Positions 3,222-52,332 of a stretch of 64,000 nt of DNA are shown one piece after another. Positions within the stretch are counted from its first letter, which is position 1, and each line of letters opens with the position of its first letter. The DNA comes from a virus (taxonomy: Duplodnaviria > Heunggongvirae > Uroviricota > Caudoviricetes): IMG/VR virus record IMGVR_UViG_3300035698_015309; one strand, 5' to 3'. Position numbers and translations under genes: made by a program. The notes below the pieces were generated by a model, which saw nothing but the letters and a program-made list of their open reading frames with translations, was not told where the DNA came from and ran no database searches.

Positions 3222-3263
3222 CGGGTACTCCTTCCCTTCGGGTCATTTGTCCCGTTACAAGGT

Positions 3264-6617: not shown

Positions 6618-6683
6618 TCCTCCTGGTGGGCGTCAGTGCCCCTCACCTTAACTACTCTGCAGGTTGCCCAGATGATCCCTGGA

Positions 6684-9371: not shown

Positions 9372-9534
9372 GTGTGTACCGACCAGCTTATTAAACTACC
9401 ACTCAGTCGGTGGAATTGAACCACACCTTGGCTTTATCAGAGCCACGCTCGAACACGAGCTACGACCTTGTAGTAGGACTGGCTACCTACATCTTCGGTT
9501 TATCAGACCGCTGTTCTAGCCGGTCGGTACACAC
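9372..9534 (-). other. structured element bounded by a perfect 13-bp inverted repeat (GTGTGTACCGACC / GGTCGGTACACAC), immediately downstream of a minus-orientation promoter motif (9535-9565)
   Basis: Internal hairpins GCTCG-TGTT-CGAGC and GGCT-CTGATAA-AGCC, a T-loop-like GTGG-TTCAATT-CCAC, and a duplicated CTGATAA. Confidence 0.3.
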
Positions 9535-9982: not shown

Positions 9983-10004
9983 CTGTGTGTATAGGGGGGG
10001 ACAG

Positions 10005-12365
10005 ATGCCCAACTGGAACCGAATAGCCCACAGCGCCAGCAAAGTAACCGGCAAGGTCCAAACGATGGTGGAACATCTGTTGGGGGTTGAAGCGCTGACT
10101 CTCCGTTTCCTGGGCACCCACTTCCCACCCCAGCACGTCAGAGAGGTTTCTTTCGCCAGCCGGGGGCATGACATCGGCAAATACAGTCCCCTGTTCCCTG
10201 ATGTACTGAACGGGGTAGCCCGAGGGGTGCTGGATCATTCCTCACCTGGAGCCTGGGTTGCTTACGACCGAGGATCCCTCCTCGCTTCCCTGTTGATCGC
10301 CGGACACCATAGGGGTCTGCCGGATTTCTCACGCGTCTATTTGGGGTGTGTCCTACGCCCCTCTGCACAGCCGATGGGTAGCGGGACTCATCCTAACCCC
10401 GGTGTCTTCCATGTCTATCCGGGGCCAGCGAAAGACTTGTTGGTTCCCCTACGTGAGGATGGCATCGAGCTTCCTGAAATCAATATAAATGATGATGAGA
10501 CCTTCTTTTCTTTTTCTGAACTGGTGAAAGGCTGGCAGTTGTCCATTGCCAAGGGCTTGGATGTCCGAATGGCCTTTTCTGCGCTCGTTGACGCCGACTT
10601 CCTGGACACCGCCGAGCACTTCAAACCAGGGCGCACCTGTCCCAACCCCCCGTTGGACGCCGGTCTCGCCCTTGACGTTTTGAACAAATACATCGACGGC
10701 CTCAGTGCCAAGAGCAAACGCAGCGATGGTGCTTCCCCTGTGGTGCAACAGGAACGGGACCGTCTACGACAGGACTGCCTCAGAGCCGCCCAGGGGCCTC
10801 CAGGACGCATTTTGACCTGTACAGCCCCCACCGGTGTAGGCAAAACTCTAGCGCTGGTCTCGTTCGCCCTGGCGCACTGTCAGGCCCACCAACTTAAACG
10901 GGTGATCATCGCTGTACCCTACAAAAGCATCATTCAACAGACGGCGAAAACCCTGAAGGAGCTTTTCAAGGACCGGGCCTTCGGTCCCCACTTTGTGTTG
11001 GAGCATCACACGGACGCCACGCAGTGGGTCGAAGAGGAGGATCTCCAACAGGATGGTAGATCAAATGAGATTGACCGACGAGGGCTCACTGAAAACTGGG
11101 ATGCACCAATCATCCTCACCACGAACGTTCAACTATTGGAGTCCTTGTTTTCCAATCGGCCAGGGAGATGCCGGAAACTCCACAACATCCAGGACTGCGT
11201 GATCATTTTTGATGAGGGCCAGTCTTTGCCCAGCCACCTTATGCTCCCCACAATAGCAATGCTCGACCGACTCAGCCGTCAGTATCAGGTCACGGTGGTG
11301 TCTGCCACGGCCACCCAGCCTGCCTTCCAGAGCATCCTGCCTCAGGTAGAAACACTCGTGGGGGAACCGCTCCAGCCCTACGAGGAGATTGCCTCCGCCC
11401 CCGTAGCCTCGGCCAAGGCGATGGTCCGCAACAAGTTTCACTGGCCGCACAACGACGACGAGAGGTGGACCTGGGCGCAGTTGGCTGACCGGGTGTGTTC
11501 GGAAAGGATGTCAAACCTCGTGCTTCTCAACAGGAAGGACCATGCGGAAGCGGCCTGGAGGGAAATACAGACACGGTGGGGGGCGGATCGAGCTATCTAT
11601 TTGACTTCCAACCTGTGTCCAGCCCACCGGAAGGGGCTACTCAAAGAGGTGGTTCGTCGGTTGAAGACCGTTGGGGACTACTTCGTTCTGGCAGCTACTC
11701 CTTGTGTGAACTCAGGGACGGACTTCGACTTCAACAGGGGCTTCCCGGCCATGGGACCGTTGGATGGGACGGCACAAACCGCTGGGCGGGTAAACCGGGA
11801 GGGCTTGCGGGTACTAGGGGACATCTTCGTTTTCCGCCCGGACGTTGAATACAAGGACATGTTCCCGCATGACGAGTGGTTCCAGGCTGCTGCCCGGATC
11901 ACGGAGCGGTTCCTCCGGCGCTACGGACAACGTCTCGACCCGACGAACCCGGAAATCTTGACCCAGTACTATGAGGCCCTCTATCGGGAAGCAGGGCTAG
12001 ATCACCCGGCCACCAAAAAGATCATCGAGGCGTACCAGGAGGGTTCCTTCGAGAAGGTCAGTCGACGCTACCGGGTCATTCCCGACAAAGGGGTCCAGGT
12101 CGTCGTTCCCTACCTGGAAGGAGGGTGTGGGGAGCAGTACAGGAAACTCAACAAGGAGCGGCCCACCCGGAAAAGCTTCCGGATGTGGATGAACCGAGCG
12201 GCCCTGCTATCGGTCTCTGTTCTGTCACTGAAGAAGGATCACCCCCTCTGGCTCAGCCTTGACCCCGTCACGCTGAAAAGGAAGGACGGCTCCATCACCG
12301 AAACGGGCTGGTACATCTGCACTGACCCAAGAGCCTACCACCCGGAACTTGGGCTGGTGCAATGA
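10005..12365 (+). CDS. cas3: Cas3 (HD nuclease + SF2 helicase)
   Basis: HD motifs (HDIGKYSPLF, IAGHHRG). Walker A CTAPTGVGKT. DEAD-like IFDEGQS. Start ATG 10005 after a GGGGGGG RBS; the listed GTG at 9987 lies inside the promoter motif. Confidence 0.9.
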   Translation: MPNWNRIAHSASKVTGKVQTMVEHLLGVEALTLRFLGTHFPPQHVREVSFASRGHDIGKYSPLFPDVLNGVARGVLDHSSPGAWVAYDRGSLLASLLIAGHHRGLPDFSRVYLGCVLRPSAQPMGSGTHPNPGVFHVYPGPAKDLLVPLREDGIELPEININDDETFFSFSELVKGWQLSIAKGLDVRMAFSALVDADFLDTAEHFKPGRTCPNPPLDAGLALDVLNKYIDGLSAKSKRSDGASPVVQQERDRLRQDCLRAAQGPPGRILTCTAPTGVGKTLALVSFALAHCQAHQLKRVIIAVPYKSIIQQTAKTLKELFKDRAFGPHFVLEHHTDATQWVEEEDLQQDGRSNEIDRRGLTENWDAPIILTTNVQLLESLFSNRPGRCRKLHNIQDCVIIFDEGQSLPSHLMLPTIAMLDRLSRQYQVTVVSATATQPAFQSILPQVETLVGEPLQPYEEIASAPVASAKAMVRNKFHWPHNDDERWTWAQLADRVCSERMSNLVLLNRKDHAEAAWREIQTRWGADRAIYLTSNLCPAHRKGLLKEVVRRLKTVGDYFVLAATPCVNSGTDFDFNRGFPAMGPLDGTAQTAGRVNREGLRVLGDIFVFRPDVEYKDMFPHDEWFQAAARITERFLRRYGQRLDPTNPEILTQYYEALYREAGLDHPATKKIIEAYQEGSFEKVSRRYRVIPDKGVQVVVPYLEGGCGEQYRKLNKERPTRKSFRMWMNRAALLSVSVLSLKKDHPLWLSLDPVTLKRKDGSITETGWYICTDPRAYHPELGLVQ

Positions 12366-12459
12366 AAAAGTCTGCGGACAGGGGTTCCTTTTGCGACTTC
12401 ATTGAGTAGTAAGAAGTGCCGCCGAAGAAACTCGGCTGGATAAACAGACGGAGGGACAG

Positions 12460-13131
12460 ATGAAAAAAGGTATGCTGCACGGGTTGGAAGTGTGGGGGGA
12501 CAATGCCTGCTTCTCCCGCCCAGAGGTGACGGAGCGGACCACCTACCCCATCCCAACCCACTCAGCCTGTCGGGGGATCTTCGACGCTATCTACTGGAAA
12601 AGGTCCGCCAACTTCTACTGGCAGATCGTCGGGGTAGAGGTTGTGAACCCGATCCGGTACATGGGGATCATGCGGAACGAGATGAAAGACAAGGTCACCC
12701 GCCGCACTCTTCAGGTTGATCTTACAACCCAGAAGCACCGGACCCAAAAGCACACCAGGACTCTCCTGGACCCCCGGTACCGCATCTTCGCACGGGCGGT
12801 CTGCCGGAATCCTGATGGGAACACCAACGCCATCGACGCCCAATTCCGTCGTCGGGCGGAGAGGGGCCAATGTTTCCACCAGCCCTTCTTAGGTTGCAAG
12901 GAGTTTATGGCCAACTTCCAGCTTGTCCCGGTGGATGAGCATGATCCATCACAGGGACTCGCAGACCTTCAGGTGGACGTGGGGGTGATGGTCTACGACA
13001 CCTTCAATCTGCTGGTGCCCGATGGAGATCCTTCGGTCAGCGTGTTCCACGCACAGATCAAGGATGGGGCCGTGGCCTACCCGGAGTTCACTGATAGTGC
13101 CGCCGTGTTCCGGCCAGGGGGTGCAGCATGA
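12460..13131 (+). CDS. cas5: Cas5c (Cas5d) type I-C pre-crRNA endoribonuclease subunit
   Basis: 223 aa directly after cas3. GLEVWGDNACFSRPE...YWKR resembles Cas5d N-terminal blocks. ATGA overlap with cas8c. Confidence 0.8.
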   Translation: MKKGMLHGLEVWGDNACFSRPEVTERTTYPIPTHSACRGIFDAIYWKRSANFYWQIVGVEVVNPIRYMGIMRNEMKDKVTRRTLQVDLTTQKHRTQKHTRTLLDPRYRIFARAVCRNPDGNTNAIDAQFRRRAERGQCFHQPFLGCKEFMANFQLVPVDEHDPSQGLADLQVDVGVMVYDTFNLLVPDGDPSVSVFHAQIKDGAVAYPEFTDSAAVFRPGGAA

Positions 13132-14960
13132 GTGGTATCGGACAGAGCCTCCTCAACTATGCCGCACACTATATGCCCCAGCAGGCTCCGGTGGGGTACG
13201 AGTACCTGACCGTCGTGGAAACCGTAGTGTGCCTGACCCCGGACGGGAAGTACCAGGACTGTCACCTCAGGGACACCAAGACGGCCTCCCCGATCCTGAC
13301 ACCTCGGGTGCCCTCCAATTTGCTCAGGGCCACGCCCCCCAAGACTCACTTCTTCATCGGGTATGTCCCCCAGGTGTTCCCTCTCCTCGTGGCCGAACCG
13401 CACGACAACACCAAGAACGAGGTGAAGAGGGGCCTCTTCCTGGAGCAGATCAGAACGGTCATCAAGGAGGTTCCCTGCACTCGGAAGTACCTGACCCCCA
13501 TCCAGACCTTCCTGGAGGACGACGAGCAGGTCGCCCTTGTGGTTCAGGCTCTGACGAAGATGGAGGCAGACCTCAAGCGGGCTGTGATCTTCCAGACCGA
13601 GGGGAAGAAACTCGGCATCCCGTTCCAGGACAAGAAGGAATGGCGGGAGTGGTGGGCGACCTACCTTTCAGGAGCGGACAAAAAGAAGAAGACCAGCGAT
13701 AAGACGTTCCGCTGCGTCGTCACCGGGGACGAGATCACGAACCCCTGCCGCATCCATCCTGACGGCATTGCCTTCGGCACAACGAAGACGAAGCTGGTTG
13801 CCGCCAAGCAGACCTCCAGTCACCACTATGGCCAGGAGTCTGGCCTCGTTGCTCCGATGTCAGACCAGACGGCGAGCACAATGACCCAGGCTCTGGTTCA
13901 TGCCGCCCAAAACGCCGGGACGGCCTTTGGGGATCTTCGAATCCTTGTGTGGGCTTGTTCCAGGGGAGAAACCCTTACGGGGAAGGCTGGACTGCTGGCG
14001 GGCCAAGGGCCGGTTCTTGAAGGGGGCGAGTGGACCCAGATCCTGTCCGACGTTATGTCCGACCTCTTGAACTCGGGATTGACGGATGGGGAACTCCGGG
14101 GTGCCACCCGGAAGGTGAAGGAATACCTGGACACGGGCACCGGACCGGGAGGTGTCCTAGACATGGACTGCACCTTGGGCATCGTTTCTAGCAACGGTCC
14201 CCGGTTGGCTGTCCGGCACTGGGAGACTGGACCCCTGTCCGTCCTGTTCAAGAACATCTATCGATGGTATCAGGATATGACCATCAGCAACAACCGCAAT
14301 GACACGGGGATCGCCCGCCTTTCTGCACTCTGGCAGATCCTTTCCGCTGTCAACGGCCCAAGGGGCAAAGCTTCCGAACTGGAGCGTGAGATGCTCGTTC
14401 AGGTAGCCCTGCGGGGCCAGTCGGTCCCAATGAGCATTGTCAAAAAGGCCCTGGTGCAGTTCCGGTCACAGTTGCACCTGTCCATCAAACCGTCAACCAA
14501 CATGGGGATCGCTCCGGCATTGCCGGGAATCCTCAAAACCTTCATCAACAGGAGAGGGAACACCATGTGTGAAGCAGGATTGAACAAGGACCACCCGAGT
14601 GTGGCGTACCAGTGTGGGCGGTTGTTGTCCGTCCTGTCCGAACTCCAGAGCCTCGCCATCGGTGGGAGGAACCCCCCGATGGCCCTGGCTGCTCAGTTCT
14701 CGTCCGCAACGATGCAGAACCCGGCCCGTGCGCTGGCCCGGTTACTGCTCCGTTCCGAGAAGCACGTCAACAAGCTCGTCCGACAGGGAAAGGGATGGGC
14801 GGATCACAAACGGCAGGAGATCGTCGACCGCCTGCCCACAGACCTTCCGACCCGCCTCGGCATCGAGGATCAAGCTTTGTTTGCCATGGGGTTGCTCCAC
14901 CAGCGCTCGTCCTGGAAGAAGCAGGACAAGCCCGCAGGGACACCCCCGATTAAGGCATAG
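13128..14960 (+). CDS. cas8c: Cas8c (Csd1) large subunit
   Basis: 610 aa between cas5 and cas7 in canonical I-C order. Size typical. No closer motif recognised by eye. Confidence 0.75.
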   Translation: MSGIGQSLLNYAAHYMPQQAPVGYEYLTVVETVVCLTPDGKYQDCHLRDTKTASPILTPRVPSNLLRATPPKTHFFIGYVPQVFPLLVAEPHDNTKNEVKRGLFLEQIRTVIKEVPCTRKYLTPIQTFLEDDEQVALVVQALTKMEADLKRAVIFQTEGKKLGIPFQDKKEWREWWATYLSGADKKKKTSDKTFRCVVTGDEITNPCRIHPDGIAFGTTKTKLVAAKQTSSHHYGQESGLVAPMSDQTASTMTQALVHAAQNAGTAFGDLRILVWACSRGETLTGKAGLLAGQGPVLEGGEWTQILSDVMSDLLNSGLTDGELRGATRKVKEYLDTGTGPGGVLDMDCTLGIVSSNGPRLAVRHWETGPLSVLFKNIYRWYQDMTISNNRNDTGIARLSALWQILSAVNGPRGKASELEREMLVQVALRGQSVPMSIVKKALVQFRSQLHLSIKPSTNMGIAPALPGILKTFINRRGNTMCEAGLNKDHPSVAYQCGRLLSVLSELQSLAIGGRNPPMALAAQFSSATMQNPARALARLLLRSEKHVNKLVRQGKGWADHKRQEIVDRLPTDLPTRLGIEDQALFAMGLLHQRSSWKKQDKPAGTPPIKA

Positions 14961-15020
14961 TCTCTAATGGCCTAAGGTGGGCCTTAGAGTTGGATTAGGC
15001 ATAAAGTGAGGAGAAGTATC

Positions 15021-16031
15021 ATGAAGGATCTTTTGATGTGGCTGAAGAGTGGGACGGCGGCAATCGGATACAGGTTCGAGATCTTGTTCCTGTTCGATTG
15101 TCTGATGGGGAATCCCAACGGTGACCCCGACTTCGGCAACCTGCCCCGGACCATCCCGGACACGGGACACGGGTTCGTCACCGACGTCGCCATCAAGCGG
15201 CGTCTCCGCAACTACGTGAGTCTCCGCAAGGCAGGCAAGACCCCGTACCAGATTTTGCTGATGATGAACACCTGTACCAACAGGCTCATCGCCAAGGCCC
15301 ACGAGGACTCCCACGGGACCGTCCCGGCGAAGGCTACCAAGCAGGAGGAGCGGGCGGCGGGTGACCGGATGTGCCAGGACTATTGGGATGTCCGCACCTT
15401 CGGCGGTGTTCTCAACACAGGTGCCAAGGCGGGCCAGATTCGTGGACCCGTCCAGGTGGTGAGTGCCCGGTCCCTCGATCCGGTATCCATCCAGGAGATC
15501 ACCATCACCCGCATGACCGACACCAAGGGCTCCCCTGATCCCAAGAAGGTCAAGACCCCCAAGGATCAGGGTTTCTCCTCCGCCCAGTGGCAGGAGTATG
15601 AGGACGGGGCCGAGGCGGCGGCTCTCCGCACGATGGGAACCAAGGCGATCATCCCCTACGGTCTCTTCGCTGCCAACATCACGGTGAGCGCTTTCGTGGC
15701 GGAACAGACGGGCTTCTCGGCGGAGGATCTGGCCCTGATGATCGAGGGTCTGGAAAACATGTACGACCATGATCGGACCTCCAGCAAGGGTTTGATGACC
15801 TGTCGGGGCATCTACATCTTCAAGCACGTCGGGACGGCGGACGACCCCGAAGAGCGGGCACAGCAGGCCAAGCTCGGGTGCGCCCCGGCCCATAAGCTGC
15901 TGGACAACGGACGCATCGTGACTGTGGTCAAAAAGGACGGGGTAGAGGCCCCGATGTCCTTCGACGACTACACTGTCACCGTGGACGAGTCCAAGCTCCC
16001 GGAAGGTGTCGAGTTCCGGGCCATCCAGTAA
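15021..16031 (+). CDS. cas7: Cas7c (Csd2) backbone subunit
   Basis: MGNPNGDPDFGNLPR signature near the N-terminus. AGGAG RBS before ATG 15021. Last cas gene before the leader and array. Confidence 0.85.
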   Translation: MKDLLMWLKSGTAAIGYRFEILFLFDCLMGNPNGDPDFGNLPRTIPDTGHGFVTDVAIKRRLRNYVSLRKAGKTPYQILLMMNTCTNRLIAKAHEDSHGTVPAKATKQEERAAGDRMCQDYWDVRTFGGVLNTGAKAGQIRGPVQVVSARSLDPVSIQEITITRMTDTKGSPDPKKVKTPKDQGFSSAQWQEYEDGAEAAALRTMGTKAIIPYGLFAANITVSAFVAEQTGFSAEDLALMIEGLENMYDHDRTSSKGLMTCRGIYIFKHVGTADDPEERAQQAKLGCAPAHKLLDNGRIVTVVKKDGVEAPMSFDDYTVTVDESKLPEGVEFRAIQ

Positions 16032-16227
16032 GGCCCTTTGCGAGCGGTTCCGTGGCGACGAAAACCCCGGAGTCGCTCGCAACCCAGAAAACCCCGTGAT
16101 CTGGGGTCGTTATACCGCAGCCGTTCTTTGATAACCGAACCAAACGGCTTGAAAAGTGACGGTTGGGAAGGACCGCTCGCAAAGGGGGCGGGAAAGCTGC
16201 GTCCCACAACGGTTTGCGAGGGGCACT

Positions 16228-17418
16228 GTCGCATCCTCTAACAAAGGATGCGTGGATTGAAACAGAGAGTACGTGCAGGCGTCCAGCGGGCTCAAGCCAA
16301 CGGAAAGTCGCATCCTCTAACAAAGGATGCGTGGATTGAAACGTTACTGCCCGCATGACACCCCGGATGAGATCACCAGTCGCATCCTCTAACAAAGGAT
16401 GCGTGGATTGAAACACTGTGGACCTGGCGGGGAAGAAGCCGACCTATGGTGGTGTCGCATCCTCTAACAAAGGATGCGTGGATTGAAACTTTCAAACAGC
16501 GACCCAGTCGAGTGCGACTTGGTGGGTGTCGCATCCTCTAACAAAGGATGCGTGGATTGAAACAAGTGCCTCGCCGTCAAGGATCCAGAGGGGAAGCTGA
16601 AGTCGCATCCTCTAACAAAGGATGCGTGGATTGAAACAGGCCCACAGAACGGCTCCCACGGCCTGGGGACGCCGTGTCGCATCCTCTAACAAAGGATGCG
16701 TGGATTGAAACGCTCAGAGGACTGCTCGACGGGACAAGACGGTCTTCCTCGTCGCATCCTCTAACAAAGGATGCGTGGATTGAAACTCGAAGTTGGGCGA
16801 AATCCAGGAATGACGGTCACAAGTCGCATCCTCTAACAAAGGATGCGTGGATTGAAACAATCCGATGACACTTCCCTTTCCTGTCCGCCCTTGGAGCGTC
16901 GCATCCTCTAACAAAGGGTGCGTGGATTGAAACGAGATCCCCCTTGCGACTCCCGCCCTGAAGGCGCTGGCGAAGTCGCATCCTCTAACAAAGGGTGCGT
17001 GGATTGAAACGTAAGCGAACTCCACCCCTGGTCCGTGGGTGACCGGTCGCATCCTCTAACAAAGGGTGCGTGGATTGAAACGCAGTGAGCCAGCGCCCCA
17101 CGAGCCATGCCTGCCTTACTGTCGCATCCTCTGAAAAAAGGATGCGTGGATTGAAACTAAATCCGATTTACGGGGAACTGGCTGGTCGGCTCACGTCGCA
17201 TCCTCTAACAAGGGGTGCGTGGATTGAAACGCTGATTCGGACTGATCCCTGAGAAGGCGCAACCCTGCCGTCGTACCATCTAACAAGGGGATGCGTGGAT
17301 TGAAACGAAACCGCAGCGAGGCAGAAGGGGTCACTCCCTCACGGGTGTGTGGATTGAAACATTAGGGTAGTAAGTGTAGACAACCTCGTCGTTCCCATGA
17401 GGGGGCGTGGATTGAAAC
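16228..17418 (+). CRISPR. Type I-C CRISPR array: 15 well-conserved 36-37-nt repeats (GTCGCATCCTCTAACAAAGGATGCGTGGATTGAAAC) plus 2 degenerate terminal repeats. Spacers 35-43 nt. Leader at 16035-16227.
   Basis: Repeat starts 16228, 16307, 16379, 16454, 16528, 16602, 16676, 16751, 16823, 16898, 16975, 17046, 17121, 17195, 17270; degenerate ends at 17360 and 17418. Distal repeats carry GGATGC->GGGTGC/GGGGTGC variants. Repeat ends in the I-C-typical GTGGATTGAAAC. Confidence 0.95.
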
Positions 17419-18430: not shown

Positions 18431-18816
18431 GTCGTATCCTTTGACAAAGGGTACTTGACAGTGCCCTTCATACCTGCTAAAGTCTAACTGTTCCTGCTTG
18501 AAACAGGGAGCTGTTGCGGCAGGAAAGCTCATGCTGATTGGGTAGGAGGTTCTGGTGTGCCCAGATGTTCTGGGGACGAACGCATCAAAACTAACGATCA
18601 TCCGAGAGGCATAAAACGAGTGCTAAGAGAGCGATTCCGTGTTAAACGGACCAGTTCCTTGGGATTCGGACGGAAGGAGCAACCGTCATTCGAGCCCTTA
18701 CCGTTGGGCCGGAAGTTTACTACCGAGGTACTTGGGACACCAAGATTCGGCACAGCTTCAAACTTGATGCCTGTTACATTTTAGCAGGTTTTAAGGAACG
18801 GTATGTGGATTGAAAC
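18431..18816 (+). repeat. Solitary CRISPR repeat split by a mini-element: 5' hairpin part GTCGTATCCTTTGACAAAGGGTAC (18431-18454) and 3' handle TGTGGATTGAAAC (18804-18816)
   Basis: The two halves reconstruct a repeat variant with the same hairpin. Insertion is at the stem-loop/handle junction. Confidence 0.65.
18449..18802 (+). mobile_element. Miniature omega-RNA-only element, copy B: LE palindrome GGGTACTTGACAGTGCCC (TTGACA-17-TAAAGT) fused by internal deletion to the tnpB 3' end/RE
   Basis: LE matches 7697 and 36179(-). Junction CTTGAAACAGGG|AGCTGTTGCGGCAGG identical to copy C. RE identical to the tnpB copies. ORF 18557..18784 is the in-frame remnant. Confidence 0.7.
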
Positions 18817-19730: not shown

Positions 19731-20315
19731 TCATTTGTTTTCTTCCGCCAGGAGCAACTCCTGGACCCGCTGGATTTCCTCGGTGGTGTGTATGGTGCCA
19801 CCGCTGTTCAGCCGCAGGTAGAACCGCAGCCGCTCTTTACGGGAAAGGTCCACAAACGAAACATGGACATTGGGTAACCGACGCACATCCCGCAGTGACA
19901 GGTCACGGAACCAGAACGCCTTCCCGTCGTCCATCTCCGCTGGGATCACCCCTTCTAGCCAACGGAGCGTCGCCCGGATCCTCTGTTGTCCGTCGATCAC
20001 CTCAGCCGCTGCGTCCAGCCAGGACACCCCCTCTGGAAGATTCTCGTCCGTCTCGTACCTCTGGATGTATATCGGCGGAACCGGACCACCTGTGATCAGG
20101 TGCCCTATGAAGCGGGACGCCTGCGAGTCCGTCCAGACCAGCCCCCTCTGATAGTCTGGGTTCAGGTCCCAAGGGACCTTGTTTTTCCGCCCAATCGCCC
20201 GAACCTCCTCCAGCAGGAAGTCTAGGGGAAAGTCTAACTGACCAGTTGGCAAGGGCCAGTCCTGGTAGCTACGCAGGGTCGAGTCCACTTCCGGCCTGTT
20301 TTTGACATTGCTTCC
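19731..20315 (-). CDS. DUF262 (ParB-like nuclease, GmrSD N-terminal-type) domain protein
   Basis: VIDGQQR motif. Start MGSNVKN. Full minus-orientation motif plus leader hairpin at 20350-20393. Confidence 0.55.
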   Translation of the reverse strand, partial: GSNVKNRPEVDSTLRSYQDWPLPTGQLDFPLDFLLEEVRAIGRKNKVPWDLNPDYQRGLVWTDSQASRFIGHLITGGPVPPIYIQRYETDENLPEGVSWLDAAAEVIDGQQRIRATLRWLEGVIPAEMDDGKAFWFRDLSLRDVRRLPNVHVSFVDLSRKERLRFYLRLNSGGTIHTTEEIQRVQELLLAEENK

Positions 20316-20542
20316 CATCGTTTCATTCTCCTCAGGGGTCATTTGCCCCTCACTTACTCTACTCAGCGGGGTCAGCAGATGATCCCATTGCACGTAAGGA
20401 TCTAAGGAAGGTGTGTCCGAAACGGCCCTTGAGCAAAGACCCCCAGAACTTTTGTTGATCATCTCAGATTCCGTTGGAGTAGTGTGGGTAGCCTGAGGAA
20501 GGCTCACTAACATCGGGGTGGACCCCCGAGAAGGAGAATGGG

Positions 20543-22456: not shown

Positions 22457-22514
22457 TCCCCTGCTGCCCCCTTCCCTACGGGGAGGGGGCGGTCCCTGGT
22501 CAAGGAGACCCCTC

Positions 22515-23078
22515 ATGAGCCTCACACTAGAAGACCTCCAAGATCACAAGAAGGTCAGTTGGGATACCTTCCGTTCGGTGCCGCTCGGGTTGCACGAAGG
22601 GGAGGAACTGGAGATCCGGTTCCTGCTGAACAAGGCTGGGGAGCACAAAATCGGCCTGTTTGACCCACGGCGCCACTGGTGGTCGGTGTGCTCATCCACT
22701 ACGGAGGAAGCGGACGCAGTTGTCAGCTTCAACGCCATCCTTGGTGCCGTCCCTACCCCGCTGCAAAGGAAAACCATCACCTTCCAGTCTGAGGGGGACA
22801 GCAAACCGGATTTCGAAAAGGGTGAGGATGAGGTCGTCAACTACCACCTCACCCTGTACGGCATGTTCGTTGGCAATCTCCGAGTCGGCAAATTCCAGGG
22901 TCAGGTAGAGCACTACGACACGATACTCTTCCCCGAATCAGCGCAGGACGATGCCGCCTATCAGATGCAGTACGGACAGCTTGTGCTCGCCTGTTACGAG
23001 TTCGTGCGGGGCCTCTACGACGCCCACGCTGCCGCTGCCCTTAGCCCCGTGGGATCATCTCCGGCACCCACAGAGTAG
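22515..23078 (+). CDS. hypothetical protein. C-terminal ...GSSPAPTE* is encoded by the intergenic motif.
   Basis: AAGGAG RBS. Stop codon is the TAG of GAGTAG. Confidence 0.45.
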   Translation: MSLTLEDLQDHKKVSWDTFRSVPLGLHEGEELEIRFLLNKAGEHKIGLFDPRRHWWSVCSSTTEEADAVVSFNAILGAVPTPLQRKTITFQSEGDSKPDFEKGEDEVVNYHLTLYGMFVGNLRVGKFQGQVEHYDTILFPESAQDDAAYQMQYGQLVLACYEFVRGLYDAHAAAALSPVGSSPAPTE

Positions 23079-23100
23079 ACAGGGTGTATGGAGGTGGCAA

Positions 23101-23301
23101 ATGACCACAGAACAGAGTCAGGCACTTCAAGGCGTACAGGGAAAAGTCATCAAAGACATAAAAGTCGGGGAGATGACCTCTTGGTGTGACAGCGGCGAGG
23201 TCCAGATCCGGTGCAGCGACGGAACGATCATTCGGATCAGTACCATTGCCGATGCCGAGGACAACAGAGCCTTCCTCGCACTGTCCGTCACCGTGCGGTA
23301 G
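23101..23301 (+). CDS. hypothetical small protein
   Basis: Full motif plus GGAGG upstream. Confidence 0.35.
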   Translation: MTTEQSQALQGVQGKVIKDIKVGEMTSWCDSGEVQIRCSDGTIIRISTIADAEDNRAFLALSVTVR

Positions 23302-23751
23302 TTGGGACTCCGACAACCACCGGGGGTTATCATCGAAGCCCCACGTCCGTCCCTGTGCCTGCACCCGGACGATCATCCTTTATGGGAAACAATGGAACGG
23401 CTGGCTTGGGTTCTTGCGAACAGTCACGGTCTACCCCTCCATTTTGTAGAACCCAAACGTAGACCCCTGTCCGATGGAGCAGCGGGAGTATGCTATTGCC
23501 ACGAGAGGCGTATTGCAATCCGGCTCCGGTGTAAGGATCGTGTAGAAGACGGCGGGGGGTGGTGGTCGAAGCCAGACCCCTGGGATCAGATCGTATTGAC
23601 GGTTGCCCATGAGGTTGCCCACCTCCGACATCCCAATCACGGAGCAGACTTCAAGGACCTGGAACAACGCCTGTACCGAGAAGCTCAGGAACTGCTAGGG
23701 TGTTGGGATCATCCCCGGCACCCACAGAGTAGACAGGGTGAGGGGGAATGA
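23302..23751 (+). CDS. SprT/Wss1-like putative zinc metallopeptidase (HEVAHLRHPNHGADF)
   Basis: HExxH...H motif. Start uncertain (TTG 23302 or ATG ~23389). Confidence 0.4.
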   Translation: MGLRQPPGVIIEAPRPSLCLHPDDHPLWETMERLAWVLANSHGLPLHFVEPKRRPLSDGAAGVCYCHERRIAIRLRCKDRVEDGGGWWSKPDPWDQIVLTVAHEVAHLRHPNHGADFKDLEQRLYREAQELLGCWDHPRHPQSRQGEGE

Positions 23752-23770
23752 CCCCCGAGGAGGATCTTAA

Positions 23771-24346
23771 ATGAGTGGCTACCCCACACGATATACTGCA
23801 GAAGGTTGTGACAGCCAATGTGTGTACCGTTCCTGTATGTGGCCGGGTGAGGACAAGGGGATCCTTGCCCAGGGCCGGGGCTACACTCGTTATCACAAGA
23901 AACCGCTCCCCGTCTGTATGCAGAGACATCTTCATGGGTGCCCCTATCTGAAACCCAAACCAGACGTTGAGAACGCCCGATGTTGTTACGCACCCAATTA
24001 CAAACGTAAGGGCAAGGCTCCCTCAGGATGGCGTACCTGTGAGACCTGCGGAACAATGGTCCCCCTTCAGGTGGCCAAAGCACTTAACAACCTCCCAAAA
24101 CGGGATGGCGTTCCTTGCCTACATGAACAGGTAGAACCGTCCATCATAACTGGTTGGTTTGAGTGCCCCTCTTGTCGTTACAAGCATAAGGGTGTTTTCG
24201 ATCATCGGCCTCTCCCCTTTGAGAAACCGAACAAAACACTGCAAGAACTGTATGACACCCTGGAGGTGCGACTTAACCAAACCGCAGAGAGTGAAATGAC
24301 TCTTGAAGGCGGATCGGCGGGATCATCTCCCCGACCCACAGAGTAG
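23771..24346 (+). CDS. Cys-rich hypothetical protein ending ...GSSPRPTE*
   Basis: Full motif plus leader hairpin plus GGAGG upstream. Confidence 0.45.
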   Translation: MSGYPTRYTAEGCDSQCVYRSCMWPGEDKGILAQGRGYTRYHKKPLPVCMQRHLHGCPYLKPKPDVENARCCYAPNYKRKGKAPSGWRTCETCGTMVPLQVAKALNNLPKRDGVPCLHEQVEPSIITGWFECPSCRYKHKGVFDHRPLPFEKPNKTLQELYDTLEVRLNQTAESEMTLEGGSAGSSPRPTE

Positions 24347-24382
24347 TTAAGGTGAGGGGCAAATGACCCCTGGGAGGATGCG

Positions 24383-24637
24383 ATGACCCTGGAGCAACTG
24401 TTTGACAAGCATGGGAACTGCCCGACCATGGGCGACCCCTACCGGAACAGCAACCCAACCACGGATCTGCTGTTCGATGAGTACGGGGATGTGCTGCCCA
24501 CGGCCCTGGCCTTCCTGAGGCGGCTTGTTCAGGAACGGAAGGTGAAGCCGATGTGCGACGCCATCACGATCCTGATGGCTGACCGCTTCGCCTGCAACAC
24601 GAAGTGCAACTATAACGCCATCACAATGTGGCGCTAG
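24383..24637 (+). CDS. hypothetical small protein
   Basis: Motif, leader hairpin (with MTPGRMR mini-uORF), GGAGG. Confidence 0.4.
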   Translation: MTLEQLFDKHGNCPTMGDPYRNSNPTTDLLFDEYGDVLPTALAFLRRLVQERKVKPMCDAITILMADRFACNTKCNYNAITMWR

Positions 24638-26274: not shown

Positions 26275-26379
26275 TGAAGGACGATCATCAACGGATACCT
26301 GAGAAGGAAGAGATCATCCTGGTGTCCGGTTGAGTAGTACAGGTGAGGGGCAAAGGACCCCTGACAAAGGAGCCCAACG

Positions 26380-27631: not shown

Positions 27632-27704
27632 GAAGGAAGGGATCATCTCACCACCCTGTTGAGTAGTCCAAGTGAGGGGCAAACGTCCCCTGGGAGGCTC
27701 ACCG

Positions 27705-28094: not shown

Positions 28095-28180
28095 GAGCAC
28101 GACAAAAAGGGATCATCTCACCGACCTGCTGAGTAGTTAAAGTGAGGGGGCAAATGACCCCTGACAAGGAGACCAACGCA

Positions 28181-28813
28181 ATGAGCAACCCTCAGATAGA
28201 TACCCTGGTCAAACGGATCGCCGCCGCTCGGGACGCTTATTACAACGGCTCCCCCATCATGACGGATGTGGTTTACGACGCCCTGGAAGATCAGCTTCGA
28301 GCGCTCGACCCCAAGCACCCGGAACTCCTCAAGGTCGGTGCAGCCCCCGCCCCGGTCAAGGGTGCATGGCCGAAGGTCCGGCACAGCATCCCAATGTCCA
28401 GCCTGAACAAGGCCCAGGTCGAAACGGATCTGGCTGCGTGGTTCGCCTCGGTGAGCAACGCCGATGTCGCTGTGATGGACAAACTTGATGGTATCTCGTG
28501 TTTTGATGGGGCTACCCCACTGCATCTGGCTAATGGGGAAACTGTCCCCCTTCAAGAGGTCGTAGAAAAGGGACTGATGCCCCAAGTTTTAACCTGGGAT
28601 CCTGAAAGGGGGGTCACCACTGAACAAGTCGTGGCCGTCAAAGACAACGGCATCAAGGATAACTGGGTTCGGGTTACCTTTGAAACGGATCCCCTGCATC
28701 TGGGATCCTCTGTTGTGGTGACTGAAGACCATCTCTTCTATGTCAAGGATAAAGGGTGGGTTGAAGCTAAAGATCTCACGGGTGAAGACGTGCTTGACTG
28801 TACCGAACAACCC
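28181..28813 (+). CDS. ligA: NAD-dependent DNA ligase N-terminal fragment (adenylation-domain start through the KxDG lysine) fused to an N-terminal split-intein half (IntN, 28499-28813)
   Basis: MSNPQIDTLVKRIAAARDAYY...VMDKLDGIS then CFDGATPLHLANGE... (Hint block A). Stops after ~105 aa of intein. An alternative start at 28154 is in frame. Confidence 0.75.
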
Positions 28814-29837
28814 TGATAGTTTAGACCCCAGGATACCCCATCTAGCGGGTGTCCTGGGGGGCCTTATGTTATTAGGGGACGCTTGGTTTGTTGAACATTT
28901 CAGGAAAACCAGAAAACGGGGTAACACGATAGCTGGTCGTCAATGGACCTTGCGAGTAAAGCAAGAAAAACCTGTCCTGACAAAAATTTGTGACCGCTGT
29001 GGACATAAAGAGATCACCTTATCGAGTCCATTATCTCGGGTTCGGCACGTGGTTAAACAAGCTGTAGAACAGGAACAGAAGTGGGGTCTGCATCTTTGCC
29101 CCAAATGTGCTCGTAAGGAGGCACGCAAAAAGGCAGCTATTACGAGAGCAACGCCCGGATGGAGTGAGAACTTTGGTCGTCAAGTAGCTTTGGGTCTGGC
29201 TTTAATACCGTCAGACAAAAATGCAGAACGATATGAAAGAGCACGTCAAACCCGTATTGCCACCTATTCCCGCATGACACCGAAGGAACGACGCAGAGGT
29301 GTCGTCAAGCAATGGCAAACAATGACGGAGGAGGCTAAACAACGGAGAGCAAAAAAAATAGGCGAGGGTGCCAAAAAAGTTTGGGCCTCATTAACGCCAG
29401 AACAAAGAAACCAACGGGTTGCTCGGATGATCAAGGGGCTCCCTCGATCAAAGATATCGGATGATTTTCGACAACATCTGATAGATGCGAGATTGTATGC
29501 AGGCTTTGTAAGTGAACAAGTCATTTCAGGTTTCACCGTTGATGAGGCTAATGAGACCTTGAAAGTGATCCTTGAGTTCTTTGGGGACTACTATCATTGT
29601 AACCCGAGTAACCCCAAATTCTCAGACCCTGAGTTCTACAACACAACAATCCGAATGACATCGGCCCAAAAATGGCAGTATGATCGCCGTCGTTTAGCGG
29701 GACTCAGAAAAGTAGGGTACCGTATTCTAGTGGTATGGGAAAGTGACTGGCGTAAAAACCCTGAAGATGTGTTGAGCAGAGTGCGGACATTTCTGAATCA
29801 GTTTAAAACGGGATCATCTGCGGACCCCACAGAGTAG
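28740..29837 (+). CDS. free-standing endonuclease between the ligA halves; C-terminal Vsr/DUF559-like nuclease domain. Start uncertain (overlaps the IntN end).
   Basis: FFGDYYHCNP...QKWQYDRRRLAGLRKVGYRILVVWESDW. Frame differs from both ligA halves. Ends in the ...GSSADPTE* motif. Confidence 0.55.
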   Translation: MSRIKGGLKLKISRVKTCLTVPNNPDSLDPRIPHLAGVLGGLMLLGDAWFVEHFRKTRKRGNTIAGRQWTLRVKQEKPVLTKICDRCGHKEITLSSPLSRVRHVVKQAVEQEQKWGLHLCPKCARKEARKKAAITRATPGWSENFGRQVALGLALIPSDKNAERYERARQTRIATYSRMTPKERRRGVVKQWQTMTEEAKQRRAKKIGEGAKKVWASLTPEQRNQRVARMIKGLPRSKISDDFRQHLIDARLYAGFVSEQVISGFTVDEANETLKVILEFFGDYYHCNPSNPKFSDPEFYNTTIRMTSAQKWQYDRRRLAGLRKVGYRILVVWESDWRKNPEDVLSRVRTFLNQFKTGSSADPTE

Positions 29838-29868: not shown

Positions 29869-31734
29869 ATGCGAGTTGCATCCGTTGAGAAAGTACCGGG
29901 ACCCAGAAGAGCCTTTGATCTGACAATCCGCAATACGTCCTGTTACTTTGTGGGGCCTGGAATTTTAGCACACAACTGTGGGATGAGATACGAAAACAGG
30001 AAGCTAGTGCAGGCGCTGACACGGGGCGACGGGACGATAGGCGAGGATATCACCCGGAACGTCCTGCTGATGAAGGGTGCAGTCAAGGTACTGCCCCCGA
30101 CGTTACCGGATGGCACCCCCACCCCAGACGATGTGTGGGTGCGGGCCGAGGTTGTGGTGACCCACGATGACTTCGTCACCCACTTCAAGGGCGAATCCAA
30201 CCCCCGTAACACGGCGAGCGGCACTGCGAAACGTCAAACTGACAACAGCAAATGTGCCTTCCTGACGGTTATCTGCTATCAACTCCTGCCCGGTGGTCGC
30301 CCGATGGCGTCCAAGAGCGCCGAGTTGAAGGCCCTGGCCACGATGGGCTTCCAGGTACCCCGCTGGGGTGAGTACAAGGGACTGGCAGCAGTGGAGGCCC
30401 TCTACCAGGACTACATCGCCACCGTCAGGAAGAGCCTGGGTTACGATATCGACGGGCTGGTGATCGAGGTGGCTGACGCCAACGCCCGTGCGATGCTTGG
30501 GGAACTGAACAACCGCCCCAAGGGTGCCTGCGCTTATAAGTTTCCTCATGAGTCCAAGCCGACCACGCTGCGGAGCATCCGTTGGCAGGTAGGCAACAGC
30601 GGGCGCATCACCCCGGTGGCCGAATTTGACGTTGTGAACCTCGCAGGGGCGAACGTCAAACAGGCGAGCCTTCACAACATCAGCAACATCGAAGGGCTGT
30701 GGGGCAAAGCCACTGTTCCGGTACCCGGCGACGCAATTCTCGTTTCTCGCAGAAATGATGTTATCCCCTATGTAGAGGAAGTCCTGAACAAGTTCGGTAC
30801 AGGCACGGGACTCCGCACCCCGACCCAGTGCCCCTCCTGCCAGGGAGCCTTGGTGCGGGACGGCGAGTACCTTGTGTGCCGCAGCGAGGAGTGCCCCGCC
30901 CAGGCAACCGGGGCCATCAGACGCTGGGTCAAGAAGCTCGGTGTCCTACACGTTGGCGAGACCCTGATCGACGCAATGGTGGATGCGTTCCCTTTCACCC
31001 TCACCGAGGAAGTGTTTGAAGTCACCTTCGGCGTAAAGAAGGATGACGTGAAGACCCTCCCGGCAGCGGATCAGGAACGGATACGCAACGCCCCAATGGA
31101 CATCGCTGACCTCTACAACCTGGACCTGGACGAGGTCGCCTCCCTGGAGTTGAGCGGACGGCGTGTCGGCGGCTCGGCGGACAAAGCCCTCAGGAACCTT
31201 AACGCCAAGAAGACGCTGCCCCTGCACGTCCTGATAGGGAGCCTGGGTATCCCCCTGATCGGGCGCAGCATGGCCAAGGTGGTTGTGGACGCTGGATACA
31301 CCACCCTGAACCTGCTCTTCAAGGCCAAGGTGCATGTTCCCATCGTCACCAGGGGCAAGACCCTCCCGGCAGTTGCCAGCATCCCTGGAATGGGGGACAC
31401 GAAAGCGCTGGCCTTCGTGACGGGATTTGCTGCCAAGGCCGGGCTGATCGTCAAGTTGCGGGCCACGCAAGACCTTGGCGGAGCCGACATCACCATCCAG
31501 GACATCTCCGGGCCGTTGCTCGGGATGACCTTTTGCCTGACTGGCACCCGTGAACCCGCCCTGCTCGATGCTATCGAAAAGGCGGGTGGCACAATGAAGG
31601 GCAGCGTGTCCAAGAAACTATCCTACCTGATCGCCCTGGACCCGGACAGTACCTCGGGCAAAGCGAAAAAGGCCAAGCAGTACGGCGTGAAGGTGATCGG
31701 CTTGGACGAGGCGTACAAGCTGGCGGGGGTGTGA
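29869..31734 (+). CDS. ligA: C-terminal split-intein half (IntC, 36 aa, ...FVGPGILAHN) fused to the remainder of NAD-dependent DNA ligase
   Basis: Own motif plus RBS plus ATG. HN|CGMRYENRKLVQALTRGDGTIGEDIT continues LigA. C4 zinc finger CPSCQ...CRSEECPAQ and a C-terminal BRCT region present. Confidence 0.8.
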   Translation: MRVASVEKVPGPRRAFDLTIRNTSCYFVGPGILAHNCGMRYENRKLVQALTRGDGTIGEDITRNVLLMKGAVKVLPPTLPDGTPTPDDVWVRAEVVVTHDDFVTHFKGESNPRNTASGTAKRQTDNSKCAFLTVICYQLLPGGRPMASKSAELKALATMGFQVPRWGEYKGLAAVEALYQDYIATVRKSLGYDIDGLVIEVADANARAMLGELNNRPKGACAYKFPHESKPTTLRSIRWQVGNSGRITPVAEFDVVNLAGANVKQASLHNISNIEGLWGKATVPVPGDAILVSRRNDVIPYVEEVLNKFGTGTGLRTPTQCPSCQGALVRDGEYLVCRSEECPAQATGAIRRWVKKLGVLHVGETLIDAMVDAFPFTLTEEVFEVTFGVKKDDVKTLPAADQERIRNAPMDIADLYNLDLDEVASLELSGRRVGGSADKALRNLNAKKTLPLHVLIGSLGIPLIGRSMAKVVVDAGYTTLNLLFKAKVHVPIVTRGKTLPAVASIPGMGDTKALAFVTGFAAKAGLIVKLRATQDLGGADITIQDISGPLLGMTFCLTGTREPALLDAIEKAGGTMKGSVSKKLSYLIALDPDSTSGKAKKAKQYGVKVIGLDEAYKLAGV

Positions 31735-35769: not shown

Positions 35770-35825
35770 ATCAATGACACGAACCGATGCTGCTGCTATC
35801 CTTGACTGCCCCGAGGAGGTACTCA

Positions 35826-36179
35826 ACCGTTCCTTAAAACCTGCTAAAATGTAACAGGCATCAAGTTTGAAGCTGTGCCGAATCTTGGTGACCCAAGTAC
35901 CTCGGTAGTAAACCTCCGGCCCAACGGTAAGGGCTCGATTGACGACCGCTCTAATCGCCCGAATCCTAAGGAACTGGTCCGTCGAAGACGGAATCGCTCT
36001 CTCAGCACTCGTTTTACGCCTCGTGGATGATCGCCAGCTTTGGTGTGTTCATTCCCAGAACATCTGGGCACACCAGAACCTCCTACCCAATCAGCATAAG
36101 CCTTCCTGCCACAACAGCTCCCTGTTTCAAGCAGGAATAGTTAGACTTTAGTAAGTTTGAGGGGTACTGTCAAGTACCC
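35826..36179 (-). mobile_element. Miniature omega-RNA-only element, copy C (minus strand): LE palindrome GGGTACTTGACAGTACCC at 36162-36179, RE at 35826
   Basis: Reverse complement is near-identical to copy B including the deletion junction. ORF 35844..36071(-) is the remnant frame. Confidence 0.7.
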
Positions 36180-36196
36180 TCCACCATGGGGATTGT

Positions 36197-37326: not shown

Positions 37327-37932
37327 ATGTCCGTCAAATTCACCAAGAAAGGCATTGCCATCGAAAAGGGTACCACTCCCCCCTCGTGGGAGGACACCGA
37401 CCAGCAGTATCAGGAGTACGTGGGCCACCAGCTTCTCAAAGCTCGACTGGAGCACCTGAAAATCTTGGAGGAAATCGCAGGGGTGCTGCCCGTGTTCGAG
37501 GAACGGCACCTCCTCAATATGGAGGCGCATCAGGCAGCGATGATTTACCTGAACCTCCCGGATCCAGGCCCCCTTTTCCCGAGCTACCAACGAAACTTTA
37601 TCACCATGAACACCACGGTAATGGACCCTGCAATTTCCTGTGCCGGGGTGATGCCCCATGTCAGGGTACTTCTTGGGTGGCTCGCTTTTCCTGAGACAAT
37701 CCGAGAAGGCGTCTGCTACCACCTCTTGACGGCGGGACGTGCTCTTTACCCTTTTGGATACGACTCAGGCCGTTCGGGTTTCACCCTCCTCCAGGAGCGT
37801 GTGGGACACTGCGTCGCTGCCGGTCTCGCTGCCTGTGAAAAACTCGGTTTTGATGGTACAAGGACGCCCCGGAAATCGGTGGTTGAACAACTCGTCCAGA
37901 CTGCGGCCCTTCTCACGGAGGACACCGAATGA
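37327..37932 (+). CDS. hypothetical protein
   Basis: GAGTAGAC plus AGGAGG upstream. Confidence 0.4.
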   Translation: MSVKFTKKGIAIEKGTTPPSWEDTDQQYQEYVGHQLLKARLEHLKILEEIAGVLPVFEERHLLNMEAHQAAMIYLNLPDPGPLFPSYQRNFITMNTTVMDPAISCAGVMPHVRVLLGWLAFPETIREGVCYHLLTAGRALYPFGYDSGRSGFTLLQERVGHCVAAGLAACEKLGFDGTRTPRKSVVEQLVQTAALLTEDTE

Positions 37933-52261: not shown

Positions 52262-52332
52262 CTGCCGGGATCATCCTGGCCAGTGGCTGAGTAGAGTGTG
52301 TGAGGGACAAAGACCCGGACAAGGAGCATCCA

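Follow-up and report, generated by a model that had tools for sequence, protein, structure and literature searches.

A promoter-attached inverted repeat in the gene leaders of a huge phage from Ace Lake: a candidate 5′-terminal stem-loop

Introduction

What does a short G/C-rich inverted repeat do when it recurs directly behind the promoters of a phage, upstream of the ribosome-binding site? The question is raised by a stretch of 64,000 nucleotides (nt) from a virus of the Caudoviricetes (IMG/VR record IMGVR_UViG_3300035698_015309), hereafter the window. Here, a block of about 20 nt with the consensus GTGAGGGG-CAAAnGA-CCCC(TG) occurs 10–11 times where no copy is expected. We tentatively favour the explanation that the block is a 5′-terminal mRNA stem-loop of the ompA, aprE, and T7 gene 10 kind, which would protect the 5′ end of the transcript and insulate the leader; on the analysis given below, we consider this quite possible.

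What is known of huge phages comes almost solely from metagenomes, and how they regulate their genes is essentially uncharted. The window was placed at ~323.8–387.8 kb of contig Ga0208769_1000001 (528,260 bp) of the Joint Genome Institute (JGI). It is carried by the “huge phage” of Ace Lake (Antarctica), in IMG/VR the largest contig with direct terminal repeats (DTR) reported (PMC8116208). About 84 kb of the 528-kb contig were covered, and counts given for the contig refer to that part. The genes of the window are mostly ORFans. Loci from IMG/VR or metagenomes that were compared with the window carry L-numbers (L015, L018, L024, L075, L115, and others). Positions after GAGTAG, the −10-like box of the promoter described below, are written as +n, and N5 denotes the 5 nt between GAGTAG and the block. 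The block model is a structure-plus-sequence covariance model of the block alone, with the promoter columns excluded; it was used to scan the window, unfiltered, on both strands.

A conserved block behind a phage-specific promoter

The promoter motif GGGATCATC-N13-GAGTAG is present in the window in 24 exact and two one-mismatch copies, which precede nearly every transcription unit on both strands. All of these copies are aimed either at a Shine-Dalgarno (SD) sequence and start codon 16–60 nt downstream or at a tRNA gene, namely tRNA-Ile in the window; one tRNA gene also stands behind the promoter in the relative L061. No excess of sigma-70 consensus sites was detected in the window, nor of intrinsic terminator-like sites (19 found against 16.5 ± 3.9 expected). 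Because its copies point at SD and start codons or tRNA genes, and because neither sigma-70 sites nor terminators are enriched, we treat the motif as a promoter that would be read by a phage-specific transcription specificity factor. The same promoter is common to a wider set of IMG/VR phage contigs. The following sites serve as examples.

24319..24346 (+): focal promoter, with GGGATCATCT (−35-like), a spacer of 12–13 nt, and GAGTAG (−10-like)
29810-29837 (+) and 56291-56318 (+): further promoter sites
20386-20359 (−) and 9565-9538 (−): further promoter sites
9400-9471 (−): tRNA-Ile (GAT), with a promoter copy 66 nt upstream

The promoter also overlaps the ends of genes. In the focal GAGTAG, the TAG doubles as the stop codon of the upstream open reading frame (ORF) 23771-24346, and in nine of 25 promoters this TAG closes a frame that has been open for 60 codons or more upstream; the promoter then supplies its final nine codons, which invariably read G-S-S-x-x-x-x-E-stop.

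23078, 24346, 29837, 54176, and 54440 (+): promoters that end upstream frames
9538, 6980, 3783, and 3264 (−): promoters that end upstream frames

The block stands between this promoter and the ribosome-binding site, as a preliminary description of the window had placed it. A 21-mer allowing at most three mismatches gave five matches in the window, compared to 0.00 in 100 shuffles, and a looser stem-only pattern gave 11 matches against 3.8 expected. The ten best matches of the block model (E 0.0004–0.19) are exactly the promoter-attached copies, with a single comparable match off a promoter (29080 on the minus strand, E 0.3). All window copies are attached to a promoter and lie in the sense orientation relative to the downstream gene. 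Six of them are canonical, the copy at 23738 is a close variant, and those at 6646, 3258, 52300, and 23093 are degenerate; the earlier count of at least ten block-bearing genes therefore stands if the four degenerate copies are included. The copies are as follows.

24352..24372 (+): focal copy GTGAGGGGCAAATGACCCCTG, after GAGTAG (24341-24346) and ttaag; −8.5 kcal/mol; 28.7 bits, E 0.0004
24374..24385 (+): focal SD GGAGG (24374-24378) and ATG (24383) of the 84-amino-acid (aa) ORF 24383-24637; SD unpaired in the predicted fold
23738..23757 (+): variant copy GTGAGGGGGAATGACCCCCG, GGGGG-AATGA-CCCCC with a 5-bp G/C stem and 5-nt loop; E 0.002; before a 191-aa ORF at 23771
26343..26363 (+): copy GTGAGGGGCAAAGGACCCCTG, loop ATG changed to AGG; −12 kcal/mol; before an 89-aa ORF at 26380
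27672..27692 (+): copy GTGAGGGGCAAACGTCCCCTG, loop ACG; before a 129-aa ORF at 27705
28142..28163 (+): copy GTGAGGGGGCAAATGACCCCTG, before the ligA N-fragment 28181-28816; loop ATG in frame; −13.6 kcal/mol, z −2.5
52300..52318 (+): degenerate copy GTGAGGGACAAAGACCCGG, 3-bp stem; E 0.15; before a 140-aa ORF at 52333
23093..23108 (+): displaced degenerate copy GGTGGCAAATGACCAC, GTGG/CCAC stem with a G-C to U-A change; E 0.43
20333..20353 (−): canonical copy before the DUF262/GmrSD_N gene (start 20318); block identical in the diverged orthologous locus L015
6954..6973 (−): copy GTGAGGGGCAAATGACCCCG, offset of 6 nt from GAGTAG; before an 84-aa ORF starting at 6938
6626..6646 (−): diverged copy GTGAGGGGCACTGACGCCCAC, re-registered GGGC/GCCC stem; −9.5 kcal/mol; E 0.19; before the PARP-like gene (start 6611)
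3239..3258 (−): diverged copy GTAACGGGACAAATGACCCG, CGGG/CCCG stem with an 8-nt loop; E 0.1; before a 107-aa ORF starting at 3221
9994..10010 (+): doubtful relic GGGGGGGACAGATGCCC after the cas3 promoter; E 5.6, chance level; its ATG is the likely cas3 start

The 84-aa ORF at 24383 is also called as a gene in L002. Scans of IMG/VR, together with one scan of a metagenome collection, yielded 34 unique block copies, all of which come from the Ace Lake phage and close relatives (75–98% identity where alignable). A final IMG/VR scan gained no further copies, and the flanks of the window contributed three extra copies that are orthologues of copies already in the set. A search of GTDB genomes returned one match, at chance level. 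No curated Rfam covariance model matched the block at gathering thresholds when run against the whole window, and none with E up to 5 touched any block between positions 23000 and 28300. A literature search for the motif strings, which are absent from indexed papers, found nothing relevant.

The block keeps a fixed distance from the promoter

The distance from the GGG core of the block to the promoter has a standard deviation (sd) of just 1.2 nt, whereas between the block and the start codon there are 9–35 nt (sd 4.7 nt). The offset from GAGTAG was measured as 5 nt and once as 6 nt, within the 4–6 nt given previously. The genuine SD follows 1–7 nt downstream of the block. This tie to the promoter, and not to the start codon, argues against masking of the SD as the main role of the block; translational control was among the roles put forward in the preliminary description.

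Promoters with short leaders (n = 39) give an estimate of where transcription starts. Their SD sequences begin at +8 (13 cases) or +9 (eight cases) and never before +8, and their start codons lie at +16 to +30. In the block-bearing cassettes, a conserved GTG or GTA occupies +6 to +8 and the A of the stem stands at +9. Because no SD precedes +8 and this triplet is conserved, we infer a transcription start site (TSS) at about +6 to +8. The hairpin would then start 1–3 nt from the 5′ end of the mRNA, and its sequence probably forms the first bases of block-bearing mRNAs. It had been noted that a TSS downstream of the hairpin would speak against a role in the transcript; the SD boundary instead points to a TSS that precedes the stem. 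As a separate observation, the short-leader copies with an SD sharply at +8 or +9 imply near-leaderless mRNAs that carry the SD at their extreme 5′ end.

Conservation of the block relative to its flanks

The block is conserved well above its surroundings. Mean pairwise identity is 0.76 in the block compared to 0.43 in the spacer and N5 and 0.41 in the 8 nt past the 3′ arm. Information content is high in the −35 box, the −10 box, GTGA-GGGG, and loop positions A3, G6, and A7; it is low in the 13-nt spacer, N5, and loop position 5, i.e., the T of ATG, where T, G, C, and A all occur. Moreover, orthologous pairs share an identical block but differ in N5, the spacer, and the downstream leader (the DUF262 gene of the window vs. 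L015, and three pairs between L115 and L024). Given this conservation above the flanks and the identity between orthologues, we take the block to be under purifying selection relative to its flanks. The earlier contrast between a conserved stem and a variable loop applies to loop position 5, but A3, G6, and A7 are conserved like the stem.

Predicted folding and the case for a 5′-terminal stem-loop

ViennaRNA predicted the hairpin in all 33 variants folded, at −2.5 to −13.4 kcal/mol; for the copies with their leaders, energies are −5 to −13.6 kcal/mol and the genuine SD is unpaired. The predicted fold consists of an A-U pair, four G-C pairs, and an inner C-G pair with a bulged A, closed by an AAAU loop; in the focal copy this is AGGGGC/G-CCCCU, with the same inner C-G pair, bulged A, and AAAU loop. 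The proposal that the hairpin sequesters an SD-like GAGGGG agrees with this fold insofar as GAGGGG is paired in the predicted 5′ arm, but the genuine SD is left free. Across copies, 83% of cells in the six-pair structure can pair, and double changes affect three pairs (U-A once, A-U twice, and G-U once). Variants that preserve pairing include GTGG/CCAC, GGGA/TCCC, and GGGA/TCCU, the last of which is kept in both orthologues, and there is a register-shift variant, GGGGG-AAATGA-CCCCC. These variants speak qualitatively for selection on pairing, as do copies with loops of 4, 5, 8, or 13 nt and the unrelated hairpins that take the place of the block at other promoters (both described below).

The favoured reading joins these features into a sequence of steps. 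Transcription from GGGATCATC-N13-GAGTAG would start about 6–8 nt past GAGTAG, at the conserved GTG, and the mRNA would thus begin 5′-(G)UGAGGGGCAAAUGACCCCU. Its first ~20 nt would fold into a G-C stem of 4–6 bp with a 7-nt A-rich loop, leaving at most about three unpaired 5′ nucleotides, and the genuine SD 1–7 nt further on would stay single-stranded. Such a terminal stem-loop would be expected to hinder 5′-end-dependent decay, whether by RppH together with RNase E or by the 5′ exonuclease RNase J. In addition, the fold would close off the SD-like GAGGGG and the loop AUG, so that ribosomes start at the true SD. Because the loop is conserved, a trans-acting factor may also read the hairpin.

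Several observations weigh against this reading. Folding z-scores of individual copies are mostly unremarkable (−0.5 to −2.5), with G/C-rich shuffles folding nearly as well. RNAalifold retains three invariant G-C pairs with a covariation term of −0.06; the covariation score of 0.070 exceeds that of shuffles (2/500) but equals that of controls slid by +2 or +3. The strand test is uninformative, with sense and antisense strands folding at −7.28 and −7.52 kcal/mol and G-U counts of 24 and 27, respectively. A generic stabiliser has no need for a conserved loop, and yet the loop is conserved. About half of the family promoters have no leader hairpin of any kind, and among phages that share the promoter, the more distant ones (IMG/VR 3300037047 and 3300014205; ~45 promoters) contain no copy of the block. 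Finally, the TSS is placed by estimate, and a start at +6 would leave three unpaired nucleotides, which is borderline for protection from RppH. The folding and covariation check suggested beforehand thus gave a hairpin in all variants, but weak covariation that slid controls match.

An RNA hairpin or a DNA element

Because both strands fold equally well, the sequence alone does not separate an RNA hairpin from an inverted repeat at the DNA level. Of the earlier statement that the conserved unit is the hairpin rather than a peptide, the second half holds, as the frame of the loop ATG is random (see below), and so does the capacity to fold. A DNA element at about +3 to +23 could be an operator for a repressor, with a geometry like that of lacO, or a signal in the initially transcribed region that affects promoter escape. 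Lac-type operators centred near +11 are dyad-symmetric sites covering about +3 to +23. The strictly fixed distance to the −10 box and the exclusive link to promoters fit such an element, as do the dyad symmetry AGGGG-N7-CCCCT, stem positions that are nearly invariant rather than covarying, the lack of strand asymmetry in favour of RNA, and a centre conserved at the sequence level.

However, the arms of the block, at only 4–5 bp of G/C, are very short for an operator of this type, and its conserved centre lacks symmetry. The spacing between the arms is altered in about six of the 34 copies, whose loops measure 4 nt (L030:757), 5 nt (23738), 8 nt (28142, 3258), or 13 nt (L021:55), rather than being fixed as between half-sites. 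Some changes, namely G-C to A-T or T-A double changes and register shifts, keep pairing but not a half-site. In addition, about a quarter of the long-leader promoters that lack the block have unrelated small hairpins in the same slot (e.g., CAGCA-TCG-TGCTG at L024:4057); this enrichment of 5′ hairpins at non-family promoters is modest, with a mean z of −0.6 and 24% of 34 long-leader promoters below −1.5. The same block also occurs behind a sigma-70-like promoter (L075, below). On balance, we regard a DNA element as unlikely.

The promoter itself contains a related symmetry. The −35 box and C-rich spacer (GGGATCATCTCCCC) form an inverted repeat, seen at L084:680-700 (−), at L056:1618-1638 (−), and in window promoters such as 24319-24334. 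The reverse complement of this repeat (GGGGAGATGATCCC) resembles the leader block, which may reflect a common origin or coincidence. The similarity of the block's reverse complement GGGGTCATTTG to GGGATCATCT prompted the idea that the block is an inverted −35 box, and the block model also matches the promoter palindromes at L084:680-700 and L056:1618-1638. We rejected this idea, as the invariant A of GATCATC falls on the most variable position of the block.

Distribution of the block and a possible regulon

In family loci, all 27 unique copies are attached to a promoter. Over 450 kb of related loci, every block-model match with E < 0.1 is a promoter-attached copy, except for one promoter palindrome. 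In the window, the block marks 11 of about 26 promoters (~40%), and of the 14 copies seen on the 528-kb contig, all but one fall within ~34 kb. The ligA orthologue in L018 has the short leader GTGAGGAGG-ATG in place of a hairpin leader. Because the block is confined to a subset of promoters, is absent from the distant phages, and is replaced at this orthologue, we regard it as a lineage-specific, exchangeable leader module rather than a gene-specific signal.

An identical 21-nt block, AGTGAGGGGCAAATGACCCCT, is found on an unrelated viral contig, at L075:4788-4808 (−) (IMGVR_UViG_3300027697_000084), which showed no protein homology to the window. A sigma-70-like TTGACA-N18-TAGGAT ends 4 nt before this copy, and downstream of it come a second hairpin (GGGCAAAAGCCC), AAGGAGG, and ATG. 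This arrangement suggests that placement with respect to the TSS is important irrespective of the type of promoter, and the isolated copy hints at horizontal spread.

The patchy distribution and the conserved loop raise the possibility that the hairpin, and especially its loop C-A-A-A-n-G-A, is an RNA operator or tag bound by a phage RNA-binding protein that controls a class of transcripts. Such a protein could act in antitermination loading as lambda N does at boxB, in translational shut-off as T4 RegA does, or in selective stabilisation, and would give temporal classes. One promoter type serves most genes, such that class control would need an extra element. Conservation of A3, G6, and A7 at the level of the stem, next to a near-random N5 and spacer, would fit a binding site, and the marking of a minority of promoters in one cluster, with orthologous genes having or lacking the block, would fit a regulon.

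The comparison with lambda is instructive. The boxB elements of lambda and P22 are promoter-proximal hairpins of ~15–17 nt with a 5-bp G/C stem and a conserved A-rich loop, bound by N, at selected promoters. Unlike these, the block does not have a GNRA-like pentaloop, its loop being the 7-nt CAAAnGA or, in the predicted fold, an AAAU tetraloop beside a bulged A; copies with loops of other lengths also persist. It further differs from nut sites in occurring more than ten times per 64 kb, compared to twice per genome, and no N-like protein or other candidate binding protein was identified. No boxA-like element (CGCTCTTTA-like, at most two mismatches) was found at a consistent position within 80 nt of 11 copies, and terminator-like sites are not enriched; we therefore rejected a nut-like site. 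More generally, it appears fairly unlikely that the hairpin is an RNA (or DNA) operator through which a phage-encoded factor reads ~40% of local transcripts as a temporal or functional gene class, and we give the RNA-tag form of this idea a similarly small share of our confidence. If true, this would amount to a system of the boxB/N or RegA type that shares no sequence relationship with those already known.

The loop ATG: leader peptide or fossil start

The loop of many copies contains an ATG. In the focal copy, the ATG at 24363 opens the reading frame MTPGRMR, whose TGA stop overlaps the true ATG at 24383, as reported before; the sequences likewise agree with the earlier statement that the loop ATG is in frame for the ligA fragment, the DUF262 gene, and the gene at 6938, with AGG and ACG variants elsewhere. 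These frames invite the reading of a leader peptide or upstream open reading frame, in which translation from the loop ATG would yield a short regulatory peptide (MTP...) and be coupled to that of the main gene. The SD-like GAGGGG lies 3–5 nt upstream of the ATG, three copies encode MTP followed directly by a stop, and three (24346, 23732, and L029) have ATGA stop-start overlaps. Yet such overlaps are no more frequent than expected by chance. Among ~31 copies, the frame opened by the loop ATG matches that of the gene in eight, meets a stop before or overlapping the start in seven, and enters the gene out of frame in seven; the ATG is absent from eight to nine, its T being the most variable position. 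The frame differs even between orthologues (20353 in the window vs. L015), and loss of the ATG bears no relation to harmful frames. We rejected the leader peptide on these grounds, since random frames and frequent losses make it highly improbable.

A different reading starts from the geometry of the leader. In short-leader promoters, the SD and the start codon occupy two slots into which the 5′ arm GAGGGG (+8 to +13) and the loop ATG (+16 to +18), respectively, fall exactly. The block could thus be a fossil initiation region, composed of a former short-leader SD (GAGGGG), an ATG, and ACC-CCn codons, that was copied along with a mobile promoter cassette while the genes kept their own SD. It would have little function of its own, perhaps serving as homology for modular recombination as in the promoter-early stem-loop (PeSL) motifs described below. 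The loop ATG is a true start only at 23093, where the 66-aa gene 23101-23301 is called from it, and perhaps at 9994 (cas3). Identical spacers in some cassettes (24319/7007 and 23051/23705) suggest recent duplication, and copies cluster in an ORFan-rich region. One indel relative to L015 also ends exactly at a cassette: a 1.2-kb segment, 22498-23703, which holds ORF 22515-23078, a promoter, and the 66-aa gene, is absent from L015 (vs. L015:3456-3469), and its right end coincides with the start of the cassette at 23705. However, its left end (22497) lies away from any cassette, and this was the one junction pair looked at. Furthermore, in both paralogues and orthologues conservation is far higher in the block than in N5, the spacer, and the 3′ flank, which is unexpected for a neutral relic; within the block, the ATG is conserved least, and its losses do not follow harmful frames. 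We hence judge a fossil origin rather improbable. To the left of the indel, a G/C-rich 3′ hairpin (~22470-22497) follows an SPFH gene.

The PeSL of T4-like phages are composite motifs that unite a terminator-type stem-loop and an early promoter (PMC4122927). Like them, the block cassette combines a short conserved promoter with a stem-loop, is repeated before small ORFans in a plastic region, and exists in near-identical copies that could mediate recombination. In contrast to PeSL, the promoter comes first here, and the hairpin, which lacks a U-tract, follows it in the leader, 1–7 nt before the SD; lacking a composite terminator-type stem-loop, the block was not assigned to PeSL.

Comparison with known 5′ stabilisers

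The stem-loop reading finds its closest counterparts among 5′ stabilisers. In the leader of phage T7 gene 10, a 5′ stem-loop is fused to a phage-specific promoter, as would be the case here. Stem-loops at the 5′ terminus stabilise mRNAs such as those of ompA, papA, and aprE, and RppH requires at least 2–3 unpaired 5′ nucleotides (both reviewed in PMC3997798). The block resembles these stabilisers (PMC3997798) in being a small G/C-rich hairpin a few nucleotides from the putative 5′ end, followed by a strong unpaired ribosome-binding site, and in being placed relative to the putative TSS rather than the start codon. It differs from ompA, papA, aprE, and T7 gene 10 in that a single sequence recurs behind many promoters, its loop is conserved, its stem is shorter (4–6 bp), and the 5′ end is an estimated one.

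A second group of 5′ stabilisers is SD-like. The polypurine stabiliser of phage SP82 in Bacillus subtilis is an SD-like purine run near the 5′ end. STAB-SD of Bacillus thuringiensis cryIIIA is likewise an SD-like 5′ stabiliser (cited in PMC3997798). The GAGGGG at +8 to +13 is similarly an SD-like purine run near the 5′ end that is not used to initiate the gene. However, STAB-SD and the SP82 element act by binding the 30S subunit and must be accessible, whereas GAGGGG is paired in both the predicted minimum free energy (MFE) and centroid folds of the block.

For the window as a whole, these results outline one phage promoter type with a sharply defined putative TSS and two leader types, one with the SD at the 5′ end and one in which a conserved hairpin precedes the SD. 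Should the hairpin act in transcript stabilisation or tagging, it would mark a co-regulated, mostly ORFan set that includes the PARP-like gene, the DUF262 nuclease, and the split ligA fragment, and could serve as a compact 5′ module in expression design. Should it be an ordinary 5′ stem-loop, its value would lie mainly in annotation, by marking TSS and operon boundaries for this phage family. The block would functionally resemble known 5′ stabiliser hairpins. What novelty remains lies mainly in the possible existence of a hairpin-defined regulon in a huge phage.

Other genes in the window

The NAD-dependent ligase gene ligA is fractured in the window and uninterrupted in a related contig (L018/L039).

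28181-28816: ligA N-extein, with the N-part of an intein after KLDG|ISC
28740-29837: free-standing DUF559/MTES_1575-type endonuclease between the ligA parts
29869-31734: C-part of the intein (…GILAHN|C) and remaining ligA, with its own promoter

Type I-C CRISPR-Cas genes (Cas3, Csd1/Cas8c, and neighbours) occupy 9987-16082, with an array at 16528-17011 (repeat GTCGCATCCTCTAACAAAGGATGCGTGGATTGAAAC); the CRISPR-Cas system of the Ace Lake huge phage has already been reported (PMC7416419). Genes for TnpB (IS605 OrfB/Cas12f-like) are present at 7773-9281, 39637-41067, and 49621-51797, one of them paired with a serine resolvase (IS607-like). Repeats of ~300 bp with 84–92% identity lie at 1-256, 8927-9212, 18447-18802, 35825-36180, and 51520-51813; these are probably element ends or omega-RNA regions, and further copies lie just outside the window. 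Three further genes are possible counter-defence genes.

5070-6611 (−): PARP-like protein (WGR + PARP_reg + PARP), with hairpin leader
37929-38696 (+): anti-Pycsar Apyc1-like metallo-hydrolase
19731-20318 (−): DUF262/GmrSD_N protein, with hairpin leader

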